A program made the position numbers and the translations under genes. 64,000 nucleotides of DNA from Schmidtea polychroa. Taxonomy: Eukaryota. Below, one piece after another: positions 19,401 to 43,400 of the stretch. Every line of letters starts with the position of its first letter. Positions within the stretch are counted from its first letter, which is position 1. The notes under the pieces were generated by a model. It did no database searches and had not been told where the DNA came from. It worked only from the letters and a program-made list of their open reading frames with translations. The stretch is from positions 22,446,001 through 22,510,000 of the forward strand of contig CM097885.1 of assembly GCA_044892525.1 (NCBI GenBank). The letters run 5' to 3'.

Positions 19401-22400
19401 ATATAACATCAGGTAGAACATATTCCGATGGATTTCCGATTTCATAAACTAGCTGTTCTTTCACAGTAGCTGGTGTTACAATACCGCCTGTATTTTCTGG
19501 TTTGGTAACAATAAACTCACCGTTTTCCTCGACTTCAACAATCGGAAATCCAATGTTCCACCTTTATATAAGAAATTATAATCTACTGATTAAACATTTA
19601 CCAATCTGGAACTGAGAAGCAATCAGTAAAGATTCCTCCAGTTACTTGAGCTCCACATTCAATCAAATGGCCGGCAAGACTAATTAGGCAAATGAATAAC
19701 AGAAAAAAATAATTATACTAAATGTAATATTTTCAAAAAATGATTTAGATGAAGACTAAAATAGAATTACATTAATGTCTTTCTAACTCGCCAATTCCAG
19801 GAAATAAGAAATAGCTGACATTTCTCATATCAAATTTTAATAAAAAAGAAGAATAAAAAAATAATCCTATCATTCAGTGTTGCACCTTCTATTTTCTTCA
19901 AGGATTTGATAATTTGTTCACTTTATATCAGAATTTTCAAGTTTTCAATGCTTTTAACTTTATAATCCTACTTTTAATCTTCTAAACCTCACATGTTTTC
20001 AACATCAAGTTCTACTAAAATTGTACCGCTTTCCATAAATTCTATGGCAAAAGAATTTTATTTTGAGTATATAATAAACTTTAGAAATTTCGAAAAATAT
20101 GTTTGTCGAATGTAAAACTAAAAATGTATAACTTCCGAAAGCTTTAATTATCATTGTGTAGAGAATTTATTCCATATCGAACTACCAAAGATATATTGAA
20201 AACAATTGAGTAAATCACTAGGGAAATCGATAATGACTCAAATTTTTTAACATAATTTTTCAGGAAATTTTATTTTTCTCTAAACAAAAAATTGGAAAAG
20301 ATTAAAATTTGATATTTTATGTTTTCAAAACGGGCTTTAAGATTTCAAATATTTAAGCACTTTGAAAATACCCCTAAAATAATCCAACTATTAATTAGAA
20401 TTTCACATGATTTTTTTAGCACAAAAAAACTAAACGTTATTCACAAAAGAATGACGTCATATATAAGGATATATAATAATTTGAACAACTATTTGCTAAA
20501 GATTTATATATATATATATATATATATATATATATATATATATATATATATATATATATATATATATATATATATATATATATATATATATATATATATA
20601 TATATTTCGAATAACTTGGGACTATATGGCTAAAAGATGGTAAAAACGAGGAGAATCAATTAGAGAAGATATGAAATGAGATTATTTAAATTTTTAAAAG
20701 ATCAAATAAAATTAACTACCTTCCGGCTGCAAGTTTATCCAGATCGCTGTTGTCCCATTTAAACTGAAATAAATATTAAGTGCTAAATTTTCACTATTGA
20801 TCGAAAATTATCATCTCATAATTTAAAGGAAACAATAATTATTTAATGATCTATAGACGAAAACTAAGTGTAGATTAATGAAATTATGTATTGAGCAGCT
20901 AGGGGGCGGGGAGACAGAATATAGGATTCAGTGTGCCTCAGAAACAATGCAAAAGCCAGATGTATACAATGGGGAGTTCAAATTCAAAGATGAATCAGGA
21001 GAAGAATATAGATTCCAAGAGAATTGGTACGAGATGCTGGGTTGTATGCAGAAGCGAATATTGTATGTGTTCTAAAGAGTGTTCTAGATCAATTTTAACA
21101 GGAAATAACTATTAGATTTAATCGTCTCAATGGTTTGAACTCAAAAATGGATTTATATTAGATGTCCTGAATGATCTATAGAGTGAGCATCTGAATATTT
21201 GTATACGCAAATTGATTTGATCTATCAACTTATTATGACATTGGTGTTAATGGCTGTGAGGTATTTTCGACTGAGAATTAAATATATCAATGATTTATTA
21301 AGATAATTTTAAATGATAAATATTTGACTATTTAAAATAACTTTTAAAATAATTTTTAAATTGAATTTTTTAAATTAAAAAATTAAAAAATTAAATAAAC
21401 TTTTTATTAGTAAATCATTTTTAAATAAATATATTTTAAATATCGAAATTTTAATAAATGGTTTTTTAAAATATTTATGTGCTTGAAATCATAGATGTAA
21501 AAAACGACAGGAAACTTCTTAAACTATAAATTGTAAACATTATGTCATTATCTACCAAATTTAAAGAAATTTAAAACTGAGTTCGTAGTATAAATTGTAA
21601 AGGTATAAATTGTACTTGAAAAATGTATTATTATAACACTAAGTCGCCCAACTAGGGTTTAATCATTTCAGTTCTTGAACTAATCCTCATCTTCGGATGC
21701 CACTCCACAGTTTCTTCAATCGGATTAATATCAGTCAGTTTATCGGTTAATCGAAGATTACTGTGGACAAAGACAACATTTCATACTTTTGCGCAGCTCA
21801 GCCGATTTCTCTTCTTTGTGTGGATAAAATCAAAGGTGGACCAATTTCTTTCACAAGCCGACGCTGATGCCACTTGCGATAAAAGACGAATATCCACTTT
21901 CTGTAGTTCAGACTCATGAGCCCCTAAATGCTAGCCACCAACGAAAAGCTGGCATTTCTTTCGCAGCAGCAGTTGCCACTTCGCGTCCAAACAGCCCCTG
22001 ACCAGCACGATAAACACTATGCTGCTGGATTGTTTTTACCTGAGACTGTACGTCACCATTATGAACTCTCTCAATCATAGAGTGAAATCCTGAGATAACT
22101 TCATTTTCATGTTGTAGGAAAGCTCGATATTCAGGATCTAGTACAAAATCTGCCGAATGAAGATCTGTGTGAGTAGGTGGATTGGGCACCGCTGGCACAG
22201 GGCACCGCTAGCACAGTACCCCCCCCCCGTCGGTAAGATTTTCAAAAATATTCTAAGTCTAAAAGTACATTTTTTTTTCAAGGTCAAATTTAAACAAAGA
22301 CATATGACTCATCAAGGTCATTGAAACAAAGACCATGAGTCATCCTATGACTCATAAAATTTTTCAAGGTCATTTAAACAAAGACCATGACTCATCCGAT

Positions 22401-40400: not shown

Positions 40401-43400
40401 ACCTTGGGAATGACCTTGGATGAGTCACGTGACCTTGAAAATGACCTTGATGAGTCATAGGATGACTTAGATGACCTTGAAAATGACCTTGAAAATTTTG
40501 ATGACTCATCGGATGAGTCATATGACCTTGAGAATGACCTTGATGAGTCATAGGATGAGTCATATGACCTTGAAAAAAATTTTTCAAGGCCAAATGAGTC
40601 ATACTATGAGTCATATGACCTTGATGAGTCATAGGATGAGTCATATGACCTTGAAAAAAATTTTTCAAGGTCAAATGAGTCATACTATGAATCATATGAC
40701 CTTGAAAATGACCTTGATGAATCATAGGATGAGGCATATGACCTTGAAAAAAAATTTTCAAGGTCAAATGAGTCATACTATGAGTCATATGACCTTGAAA
40801 ATGACCTAGACGAGTCATAGGATGAGTCATACGACCTTGAAAAAAATTTTTCAAGGTCAAATGAGTCATACTATGAGTCATATGACCTTGAAAATGACCT
40901 TGATGAGTCATAGGATGAGTCATATGACCTTGAAAAAAATTTTCAAGGCCAAATGAGTCATACTATGAGTCATATGACCTTGAAAATGACCTTGATGAGT
41001 CATAGGATGAGTCATATGACCTTGAAAAAAATTTTTCAAGGTCAAATGAGTAATACTATGAGTCATATGACCTCGAAAATGACCTTGATGAGTCATAGGA
41101 TGAGTCATATGACCTTGAAAAATTTTTCAAGGTCAAATGAGTCATACTATGAGTCATATGGCCTTGAAAATGACCTTGATGAGTCATAGGATGAGTCATA
41201 TGACCTTGAAAAAATTTCCAAGGTCAAATGAGTCATACTATGAGTCATGGTCTTTGTTTCAATGACCTTGATGAGTCATAGGATGAGTCATATGACCTTG
41301 AAAAAAAATTTTTCAAGGTCAAATGAGTCATACTATGAGTCATATGACCTTGAAAATGACCTTGATGAGTCATGGCCTTTGTTTAAATGACCTTGAGAAA
41401 ATTTTTTTGACCTTGATGAGTCATATTATGAGTCATATGACCTTGAAAATGACCTTGATGAGTCATCGGATGAGTCATGGTCTTTGTTTAAATGACCTTG
41501 AAAAATTTTATGAGTCATAGGATGACTCATGGTCTTTGTTTCAATGACCTTGATGAGTCATATGTCTTTGTTTAAATTTGACCTTGAAAAAAAAATGTAC
41601 TTTTAGACTTAGAATATTTTTGAAAATCTTACCGACGGGGGGGGGGTACTGTGCTAGCGGTGCCCTGTGCCAGCGGTGCCCAATCCATCTACTTGTGTGT
41701 ATACCTTTCCTGCACACGGTACGGATACATCAACTAAACGCAATACAGGCACAAGTTGTACACAAATCGAAGTCAATTGCAACAGAAGATCCCAAAATTG
41801 GTTGTTAAGTATGATTTCCGTCACAGACTTTCCTATTTCAGCATACTTTAGTCCCGACACCCACTTCTTGTAATCGCGATCCATGACAGTTTCTTGCAAA
41901 GCATCTTTCGTTTCATATAAACGTGTATCATTATAAAATAACCTACAAAGCGTGTTTCCCCAGGTTTCAGCAATTCCAGAGTGGAATATGCCCGAAAGAA
42001 TGACAACGATGCTTGATGTGTTGTTATGAACTTAACTATAGAATGTCCATCTGTAATAATACTGGTAACCCATGGTAACTTTCCAACATCCTCAAGTAAC
42101 AGGTCAAGACAATGAGCTGCACAGGGCAAGCATACTACTGATGGAAAAGCTTCACTGATCTTTTTCCTGGCTGCGCTATCCGTAACAACTTGGACAACAG
42201 CCTCAATATTTCTGGTGAGTTCTCTTGCAATAAAATTGCTATTCTTAGTCTGCCCCGATGTATCTATGCCATCAAGAAACATCGTACCATCACCTGTTAC
42301 AATAAGACAATTGACCATAGGTCGATTTTGTATGTTAGTCCAACCATCACTGACCAAGGTTTCGACAAGAGAGGACATGTGTATTTGTAGTCAGAAAATT
42401 TTTTATCAACTCGTGAAACCTCCGCGGCTAGCAACTTCTCTGATACTGTTGTCCGATTGGGAGCAGTGTAACTTGGTCCTCTTTGAAATATTTGCCTTCT
42501 GCAACGACAAATGGAATATCGTTTGCAAAAAATAGACGTGCAATTGCGGAATTGGCCAGCTGTTTTGACCCACTCTTCATCATGTCAGTCAAACACATTT
42601 GTTTTGAACTTGAAGTGTGTGTGTGCACGTTAAGTCGCTTTGTCCAACGCATCTCGTTTTCTTTTCATTGCATCTTGGTTCGCCCTTTCAATATTATCTT
42701 CTTTAATCATATTTTTTATATCGGCCGGCACTTTTTCACATGATTTTATATTGATATCGTCTCCTGCAAGATGATTATTCCACCAGAATAAACTTTGTCA
42801 CAGTAAATGTATTTCAATTTGGAAAATTCAGATTTTTTTCCTCTCGTTTATCAGTAACATGAATCCATTCTATACTCCTTTCTTTTGGCATTTAGGATAA
42901 AGAAATATATTTTTTATTATAATTGATTTATTGGAATATAATCGAAATTTCTATAAAAATAAAATTTTAACCAAAATGGTTGCATTTCAAAAAAACGTCT
43001 TTATAAACTGATGAATGCATCCCCATTGATACAGATCGATCACAATTTTGTTATTTTTGAACAAAATTATTAATTAACCATTTTTTTATTAATCTTATTT
43101 CTTGTAGGCCACTTCAGTATGCAAGAGTTTTGTTTACTTATAAACAGAAACTTACGCAATTTCAATTTGGAATTCGAGAAAATACGGAGGCGATGAAAGA
43201 GACATCCGACAAAAAAATAATTTAAAAAAAGTATAATAATAAAAAACGAAAAAAAACGGAAAAACGGTTTTTGGCATCTATGCTTGAAATTAAATTAATG
43301 TGGTATTACGCAATGATCATTTTGAAATTTGTATTTTAGTGCACCAATTTTTGAATTTCATATTATTTTAAACAACTTGAGATATTTTCACTCGAACAAA

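Follow-up and report, generated by a model that had tools for sequence, protein, structure and literature searches.

The segment at 22172-41693 is a Polinton/Maverick, a virus-like mobile element of 19.5 kb. In our preferred reading (probability about 0.72) it belongs to a high-copy family and was inserted recently but is now broken, its 11 GT-AG introns were likely gained singly, the host spliceosome is likely needed to make its polymerase, integrase and protease, and its cargo is kept by selection. All positions refer to the window, the whole stretch of 64,000 nucleotides that was analysed, and the features are collected in Table 1.

Identity of the element and its family

The boundaries of the element are exact, with AGTAG...CTACT termini, and it combines the Polinton/Maverick traits of long TIRs with AG...CT ends and a 6-bp TSD with the gene set of pPolB, rve integrase, packaging ATPase and adenain-type protease. 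Nearly identical TIRs and an intact TSD had been claimed in the initial annotation, and both hold: TGTGTG stands on either side, and the TIR pair has 14 mismatches in 1,244 aligned columns (~99% identity). The left TIR measures 1,245 bp and the right 1,773 bp because the number of tandem units and the (AAT)n tract differ. Sister hAT copies hold the word TGTGTG once at the same site, with ~100 bp extra beside it, and no clean empty site was found among them.

Pattern counts across the genome gave 1,208 Bcl-2 exon ends, 1,787 termini and 2,016 intron-bearing integrase sites, and the reversed-pattern controls for all three returned 0 matches. Six sisters are 2.0-7.2 substitutions per kb from this copy, and distinct TSDs were found in five of the six closest copies. 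The family of this copy is young and very abundant, in agreement with the recently active lineage first proposed; at ~900 end pairs of 19 kb it would make up roughly 2% of the genome. Two visible lesions only had been noted, and two were found: the basic ORF contains a stop, and the polymerase frame is broken close to its 5' end. Nearly all sisters tested lack both lesions, which are private to this copy; it is near-intact as described but not autonomous because the lesions hit the polymerase. In working copies, host RNA polymerase II would make the transcripts, the protein-primed polymerase would copy the element from the TIR ends, and the integrase would insert it with a 6-bp duplication.

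Table 1. Features of the element and its target site, in window positions.
Feature	Position	Strand	Remarks
Left TSD TGTGTG	22166..22171	+	right copy 41694-41699
Left TIR	22172..23416	+	~93-bp tandem units
165-aa orphan (surface protein)	23372..23869	-	predicted signal peptide, coiled coil, hydrophobic tail; intronless
Bcl-2-family gene, two exons	23981..24495	+	intron 24278-24321 (44 nt); C-terminal hydrophobic anchor
Acidic orphan ORFY	24564..24949	-	intron 24887-24927 (41 nt) after codon 7
Conserved 136-aa ORF	25076..25486	-	intronless
Cys-motif orphan ORFX	25911..26328	-	intron 26228-26276 (49 nt)
Short TBP-like gene, 145 aa	26400..26837	-	intronless
A32-like packaging ATPase	26937..27563	+	Pox_A32 above cut-off
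Basic ORF, presumably PZ-like	27582..28115	+	broken by stop 27957-27959
rve integrase	28177..29268	+	C-terminal chromodomain; (ATT)n intron 28565-28639 (75 nt) adjoining TDLG motif
Putative minor capsid protein	29238..30287	+	by position and size; minority allele
Small conserved ORF between putative capsid genes	30274..30645	+	
Putative major capsid protein	30642..31862	+	by position and size; intronless
Adenain-type protease	31890..32275	+	intron 31895-31932 (38 nt) splits ATG-GA from rest
Protein-primed DNA polymerase B	32740..38512	+	five phase-1 leader introns; frame broken near ~34770-34790
Polymerase introns	32786-32832, 32896-32940, 33040-33081, 33181-33229, 33419-34477	+	47, 45, 42, 49 and 1,059 nt
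Helical domain with C-terminal C3HC4 RING	39293..39928	+	intron 39335-39379 (45 nt)
Right TIR	39921..41693	-	
Target: older DUF659 hAT transposase	41694..42390, resumes left of 22172	-	

Gene content and selection

Among the core genes, the integrase was recognised by rve (E 1e-5) and its chromodomain and the protease by Peptidase_C5 above cut-off. The polymerase matches a PHROG DNA polymerase (E 8e-14), with no PF03175 match; it has a Cys/His finger in exon 6, an endonuclease-VII-like insert and words that we take to be the Exo and Pol motifs. The putative capsid ORFs have the fitting size and place and are kept in relatives, while searches against Pfam, PHROG and PDB gave no match (0 for the MCP profile against PDB).

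TBP, Bcl-2, RING and surface-protein genes are all present as the initial annotation stated. TBP is matched by Pfam (E 1e-15) and, over its C-terminal half, by PDB TBPs (to E 4e-11), and RING by zf-C3HC4_3 (Pfam E 1.5e-9). For Bcl-2, exon 1 alone reaches a Pfam E of only 0.03; sister copies exceed the cut-off, the BH1/BH2 motifs and the hydrophobic tail are present, and removal of the intron gives gap-free spacing against the host gene L114. In the surface protein both ends are hydrophobic, five sequons for N-glycosylation occur and the tail may be GPI-like; it has no family and no Atlas match, only 2 near-identical homologues. ORFX found 0 matches among 1.84 billion representatives, and its predicted structure (pLDDT 53) is too poor for a fold search.

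Median omega is 0.07-0.49 across all 18 pieces, indicating purifying selection, which includes the TBP, Bcl-2, RING and surface genes; the values are pairwise and non-independent, and that for TBP comes from 2 pairs only. The surface orphan stands at 0.29 and ORFX at 0.08. The cargo would be kept by selection on the element. It consists of separately acquired, conserved genes rather than the combined host-control "kit" proposed at first. The short TBP form is common to a wide Polinton clade, and the RING protein has no BIR by Pfam, its modelled N-terminal part being all-helical with no significant fold match (best Z 5.5). As for predicted roles, TBP probably serves the element's own ATAAACAA promoters, Bcl-2 probably keeps the host cell alive and the RING protein is probably an E3 ligase.

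Introns and splicing

The expectation of about 11 introns, mostly 38-49 nt and similar to the short introns of the host, was borne out: 11 were counted, all GT..AG and AT-rich, and nine of them span 38-49 nt. These short introns coincide with the lower part of the host peak, since 14 of 14 introns in one cleanly parsed myosin gene measure 42-55 nt (the parses of two further myosin genes were less clean). Core genes (integrase, protease, polymerase) hold seven of the 11. A twelfth candidate of 42 nt in the TBP gene was rejected: in 20 of the 21 homologues inspected the protein begins at an in-frame M-x-x-N-I-N-Y or close to it, the supposed donor resembles a TATA word, and diverged copies have lost the acceptor.

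GT..AG is kept despite out-of-frame changes of length in Bcl-2 (25/25), ORFX (18/18), protease (21/21), ORFY (24/25), the first polymerase intron (9/10) and RING (6/7); for the fourth polymerase intron it was seen in 1/4 copies in one recovery and in 5/6, at 49-50 nt, in another. The contig search of a probable RNA run (X4) covered 23260-24505, so the RNA evidence concerns the Bcl-2 intron only, one of the 11. In one contig the end of Bcl-2 exon 1 directly precedes base 24322, the exons being joined; this contig belongs to a sister subfamily ~90% alike, was seen as a loose end and is absent from the joint table. Another contig has an A-tail just past the Bcl-2 stop, and unspliced Bcl-2 contigs also exist in X4. 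The joined exon end equals 16 genomic matches; an intronless genomic Bcl-2 copy was considered as the source and rejected, none of four candidate copies (which read AT there) being without the intron. Of the earlier view of a lineage strongly adapted to host splicing, the part that stands is that the introns are real, and gene structure suggests that the polymerase, integrase and protease likely depend on the host spliceosome. As to the converse picture of old copies with introns lacking RNA, the family is young and one junction was obtained from the probable RNA run, for Bcl-2 in the sister subfamily.

Probable origin and order of intron gain

The introns were likely gained in succession, as insertions that were tolerated while the element lived in the nucleus of an AT-rich host with short introns. 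Judged by where introns are present or absent on trees, the protease intron would be the oldest: it occurs in 2 of 10 metagenome relatives among the matches listed, and these group with elements of this genome (support 100/100). The polymerase, ORFX and ORFY introns, common to distant families of the genome, would come next, with the Bcl-2 and integrase introns as younger gains. The element recombines by modules, so the tree of one gene need not date the intron of another. The Bcl-2 intron does not sit at the host position, which follows GGW in 5 of 8 host-type genes, and the Bcl-2 gene of a distant family has no intron. Support in the Bcl-2 tree is weak, with 69/95 for the grouping with L114; the Burro retrotransposon, tried as the Bcl-2 donor, sits on a long branch and gave no verdict. 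Two polymerase introns are alike via an exon-intron duplication, the sole such pair among the introns of the element.

The integrase intron is an (ATT)n insert that is missing in 15/15 metagenome relatives and in three distant copies of this genome, and the five intron-bearing integrase rows form one clade (support 100/99). Its junctions carry an 8-nt repeat, versus 0-4 nt at the other ten introns. Counted by eye, 29 copies are <=40 nt and 593 are 41-70 nt, and 46 of 100 among the matches listed are exactly 42 nt. This intron probably originated when an AG|GT site was duplicated around an (ATT)n filler, and its length is probably kept above the minimum intron size of the host. One could go further and propose a virus-like lineage that continually gains spliceosomal introns in essential genes, with the microsatellite intron as a birth under way in ~2,000 copies held at the host minimum, and, in the boldest form, with introns that disguise or gate transcripts and drove the 18-fold excess over intronless relatives; we regard this as improbable.

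Alternative explanations

An adaptive role, in which introns mark transcripts as host-like or gate expression and so aid the expansion of the intron-bearing lineage, seems unlikely to us. Several introns separate the start codon from the rest of the frame, the genes for ORFY, ORFX, protease, polymerase and RING each have their first intron within 18 codons of the start, first-intron sites persist at 29-60% protein identity, and integrase sites with the intron outnumber those without by 2,016 to 112. One lineage against few is however no test, the two search patterns behind these counts differ in reach, and the capsid-region, ATPase and TBP genes do without introns. Precise intron loss is rare, so old introns can persist without benefit. 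It is far less probable still that the integrase insert is an unspliced poly-isoleucine expansion in copies moved by intronless relatives. The insert is in frame and stop-free in 26/26 fetched copies (out of frame in 3 of 100 among the matches listed), yet every copy seen has perfect GT and TTTTAG ends, the length has a sharp lower limit near 39-42 nt, the first integrase exon has an omega of 0.07, and unspliced it would add 20-69 hydrophobic residues beside the catalytic Asp.

Somewhat more plausible, though we still doubt it, is a purely intragenomic transposon in which neither the virion-type genes nor the cargo have a part in an infectious cycle any more. The very high copy number fits intragenomic spread, and scans of viral contigs with MCP and TBP found no relative, a result uninformative on absence. 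Against this, omega values of 0.09 for the putative capsid and 0.07 each for protease and ATPase indicate strong purifying selection, and the putative penton exists in two types ~54% alike amid neighbours 93-100% alike, as surface proteins under host pressure might be.

Relation to known systems

TIRs, a 6-bp TSD, pPolB, integrase, ATPase, protease, two putative capsid genes and purifying selection on the core are shared with vertebrate Mavericks as described by Barreat and Katzourakis 2021 (PMC8097293). Intact elements in that account have intronless ORFs ("No introns were observed") and a median of 8 copies, the highest number named being 287, for defective ones, whereas here the core genes contain 7/11 introns and there are more than 2,000 integrase sites. 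The same account gives particles as so far unseen for animal Mavericks, and if the host is a planarian, a young family in such a tractable animal would be a good place to seek them. Nematode Mavericks (Widen et al., 10.1101/2022.07.12.499685) likewise have a cargo block between left TIR and integrase and intron-containing cargo. Their core genes are called intronless and their cargo introns are said to arrive with captured host genes; unlike them, this element has core introns, a Bcl-2 intron off the host site and no fusogen that was recognised. Bcl-2 and TBP cargo recalls adintoviruses and MELD viruses (Starrett et al. 2021, PMC8502044), for which Bcl2 and IAP homologues are reported, and TBP in a figure legend on MELD viruses of non-animal datasets; the main text there mentions no spliceosomal introns, and the RING protein here is without a BIR.

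In the literature searched we found no paper on animal Polintons with introns in their core genes; outside that scope, Kapitonov and Jurka 2006, Koonin 2024, Repbase and bioRxiv supplements may already describe planarian Polinton exons. With Polinton core genes described as intronless, a survey based on ORFs would count copies like these as broken and overlook where the polymerase begins.

Introners in dinoflagellate eupolintoviruses (PMC12166617) are also spliceosomal introns inside integrated Polinton-type elements, but those are host intron-making transposons, while the introns here are unrelated AT-rich sequences, one exon-intron duplication aside, inherited in the lineage. The 8-nt integrase repeat over AG|GT resembles intron gain through AGGT tandem duplication or break repair with short direct repeats (PMC3443670), from which it differs in its pure microsatellite filler and in being a gain in a virus-like element; that source also cautions that short repeats flank old introns equally often in Drosophila. 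Recent intron gains of visible origin are rare, and with ~2,000 natural length variants of one young intron both the minimum size and the birth of introns become open to testing in an animal.

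Structure and lesions of the element

The element is a true Polinton/Maverick. It begins with AGTAG, ends with CTACT, and is flanked on each side by TGTGTG, a 6-bp target site duplication (TSD). The terminal inverted repeats (TIRs) measure 1,245 bp (left) and 1,773 bp (right), the surplus consisting of tandem units and (AAT)n, and show 14 mismatches in 1,244 aligned columns, so that the near-identical TIRs and intact TSD described in the initial annotation hold. The insertion target is a DUF659 hAT transposase of greater age, with sister copies that are 83-95% alike; ~100 bp adjoining the TSD are missing from the target copy and present in 6/6 sister copies listed.

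Pfam matches were obtained for ATPase, rve integrase with chromodomain, adenain-type protease, TBP, and C3HC4 RING, and the long ORF matches a PHROG DNA polymerase. The Bcl-2 Pfam match is weak with exon 1 alone, and sister copies score above the cut-off. The surface protein starts with a signal-like segment and has a hydrophobic tail and five sequons; no relatives of it were found beyond the element family. The four cargo genes proposed at the outset are supported by Pfam (TBP, RING), sister copies (Bcl-2), or sequence features (surface gene). Two genes bear putative capsid labels (MCP and penton) on account of where they lie, how large they are, and their conservation in relatives; neither label was confirmed in searches of Pfam, PHROG, and PDB.

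The two visible lesions previously reported were both found: a stop interrupts a basic PZ-like ORF, and a frame break parts the polymerase finger exon from the polymerase body. Among sister copies reached by probes, these sites are open in 20/21 and 10/11, respectively. Because of the stop and the frame break this copy is dead on its own, which need not hold for its family.

Features of the element and its surroundings (window coordinates)
Feature	Position	Length or remark
Element	22172-41693
Bcl-2 exon 2, first base	24322
ATAAACAA	24973, 26905, 27550, 28033, 28112, 29195, 30174, 30601	coding strand of following gene
Stop in PZ-like ORF	27957-27959
Putative penton	29238-30287	minor capsid
Putative MCP	30642-31862	major capsid
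Tandem repeats, long polymerase intron	33552-33830, 33997-34210	21-bp and 107-bp units
Polymerase frame break	near 34770-34790
Palindromic CTGCAGTGGGCATGCAG, 3' of polymerase	38741-38950	also repeated in long polymerase intron
hAT sequence missing next to TSD	41694-41705	~100 bp
Gypsy-type integrase fragment-like ORF (by eye)	50764-51255 (-)	164 aa
Bcl-2 intron		44 nt
ORFY intron		41 nt
ORFX intron		49 nt
Integrase intron		75 nt
Protease intron		38 nt
Polymerase leader introns (n=5)		47, 45, 42, 49, 1,059 nt
RING intron		45 nt

Support for the introns

Eleven introns were annotated, in agreement with the ~11 first predicted, and the short ones resemble host introns, which are 42-55 nt in 14/14 cases in the myosin gene (one gene, gap-free parse) and ~42 and 45 nt, by eye, in the host TBP gene. 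A candidate TBP intron was ruled out, since homologues begin at an ATG that lies in frame shortly before exon 2. In other copies GT and AG are retained while intron length shifts by non-multiples of three: Bcl-2 25/25, ORFY (acidic orphan) 24/25, ORFX (Cys-motif orphan) 18/18, protease 21/21, RING 6/7, and two polymerase introns 9/10 and 1/4. All 14 variants inspected retain the acceptor ahead of the polymerase finger exon, down to ~41% protein identity.

Further evidence, bearing on the Bcl-2 junction only (1 of 11 introns), came from assembled contigs of two sequencing runs. One contig of X4 (presumed RNA) joins the end of exon 1 straight to the first base of exon 2; another has an A-tail just beyond the Bcl-2 stop, two are unspliced, and two contigs of run X1 start exactly at exon 2. 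The exon end of the joined contig has 16 genomic matches, all in a sister subfamily, and no intronless genomic source was found among 4 candidate copies. In one subfamily (copies L047, L068, and L084) the Bcl-2 intron is itself an (ATT)n tract of 51-71 nt.

Origin of the introns

The integrase intron is missing, at the same codon, from 15/15 metagenome relatives and three distant own-genome copies; in the tree, the five rows with the intron group together as a single clade (100/99), nested within 16 intronless rows. Intronless sites number 112 in the genome, and the 30 examined are all distant (<=84%). This intron consists almost entirely of (ATT)n, and an 8-nt repeat spans its junction (0-4 nt at the other ten introns), a structure that fits AGGT duplication or break repair, both routes of intron gain (PMC3443670, partial text). 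Its splicing is inferred only, because the insert is in frame in 26/26 fetched copies. Under length patterns stricter than the one used for the genome-wide count of intron-bearing sites, 29 sites are <=40 nt (13 of these 39 nt) and 593 are 41-70 nt; the length is 42 nt in 46 of the first 100 sites listed. This size floor is the best support for splicing.

In 9/10 own-genome rows listed, the protease intron comes after ATG and two further bases; the tenth row is an unrelated 30% match. It is also found in metagenome contigs L213 and L217, which cluster with the own-genome elements (100/100), and is absent from the other eight metagenome rows listed (six clearly readable). An intron after GGW is present in 5/8 host-type Bcl-2 genes; the element intron lies 13 codons upstream of that site, and the Bcl-2 of a distant family has none. 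Bcl-2 was likely captured, with weak tree support (69/95), from a gene like host L114 and then gained a new intron. The 5' introns are kept in ORFX at 51% identity and in ORFY at 30%. A duplicated exon-intron block makes up two polymerase leader exons, and polymerase exons 2-5 have lengths in multiples of three.

ORFs of intact vertebrate Mavericks are intronless and copy numbers low (PMC8097293, partial text), whereas this family has intron-bearing core genes and 2,016 intron-bearing integrase sites (whole-genome pattern count). In nematode Mavericks the cargo contains introns and the core genes do not (10.1101/2022.07.12.499685, partial text); here core genes do too. Introners entered dinoflagellate eupolintoviruses (PMC12166617, partial text), and cryptophyte PLVs contain group I introns (PMC12220804, partial text). 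We found no report of animal Polintons with intron-bearing core genes in the literature, covered partially and without Repbase. The present analysis contributes a spliced contig (presumed RNA), an order in which the introns were gained step by step, and a young microsatellite intron that shows a size floor.

Cargo genes and a putative promoter word

Median values of pairwise omega are 0.17 for TBP (2 pairs), 0.14 and 0.25 for the two exons of Bcl-2, 0.23 for RING, 0.29 for the surface gene, 0.08 for ORFX, and 0.49 for ORFY; core genes range from 0.07 to 0.34. The short TBP has 123 homologues; of 75 metagenome loci, many place it next to Polinton genes. In the same loci, mostly short contigs, no Bcl-2, ORFX, ORFY, or surface gene was found, and RING occurs once as a 29-residue match. 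TBP therefore belongs to the lineage from of old, and the other cargo genes were added locally. Adintoviruses likewise carry homologues of Bcl2 and IAP, with TBP among the genes listed for MELD viruses (PMC8502044, partial text). The helical N-terminal part of the RING protein (predicted model) gave no fold match.

All 8 occurrences of ATAAACAA within the element lie ahead of a gene on the coding strand (24 observed vs 14 expected in the whole window); since the word precedes genes, the promoters on which the TBP acts are probably those of the element itself. The initial interpretation is partly supported: recent activity and the introns hold, and a role of the cargo genes in host transcription or cell-death control is hypothetical.

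Seven near-identical host-type Bcl-2 genes (L103-L109) are clustered at 89.9-90.8 Mb of host contig C4. The host genome also holds many ORFs of up to ~3,050 aa with a Bcl-2 domain (e.g., loci L169 and L170); planarian Burro retrotransposons carry this domain (PMC6431247, partial text), and these Burro-like ORFs are a second mobile Bcl-2 source and the chief pointer to the host group, likely planarians.

Copy number, age, and mosaic copies

Whole-genome pattern counts gave 1,208 Bcl-2 exon ends and 1,787 element-type termini, which may include non-autonomous satellites. For MCP, 40/40 scored matches (out of 3,168 first-look candidates) are full-length at 99-100%. Of the six closest copies fetched, five retain both ends and a 6-bp TSD of their own; another copy interrupts the remaining one. 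The window differs from the closest copies by 2.0-7.2 substitutions per kb; together with the distinct TSDs and the full-length MCP matches, this substantiates the suggestion of a recently active lineage. Mavericks have also expanded in Dugesia (10.64898/2025.12.11.693146, partial text).

Twenty copies were chosen by position in the first 45 Mb of contig C1, as 20-kb stretches in which the right end may be missed; these copies are older and mosaic. MCP is present in 15 (13 open; DNA 92-99.8% alike), TBP in 16 (14 open), Bcl-2 exon 1 in 19 (18 open), the surface gene in 18 (16 open), RING in 9 (7 open), and polymerase at >=70% in 9 (5 open). Near-identical closest copies alongside older mosaic ones therefore indicate that the family has a long history and underwent a burst very recently. 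Same-family copies also lie nested in or beside each other (L036; L024/L026).

The putative penton occurs as two types (copies among L123-L162): 13/20 position-picked copies have a type with 53-56% identity to that of the window, 3/20 have the window's type, and 4/20 have none. The two types have similar ends and a divergent middle, and the flanking genes are 93-100% identical between copies, a pattern that suggests domain swapping. Polymerase modules also differ between copies (~50-70% protein identity) on a common capsid block (among L069-L086, L123-L162, and L189-L203) and are reversed in some families; in nematodes, exchange of polymerases is a known phenomenon (10.1101/2023.08.22.554363, partial text). 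RING variants at 37-38% likewise sit on a common capsid block.
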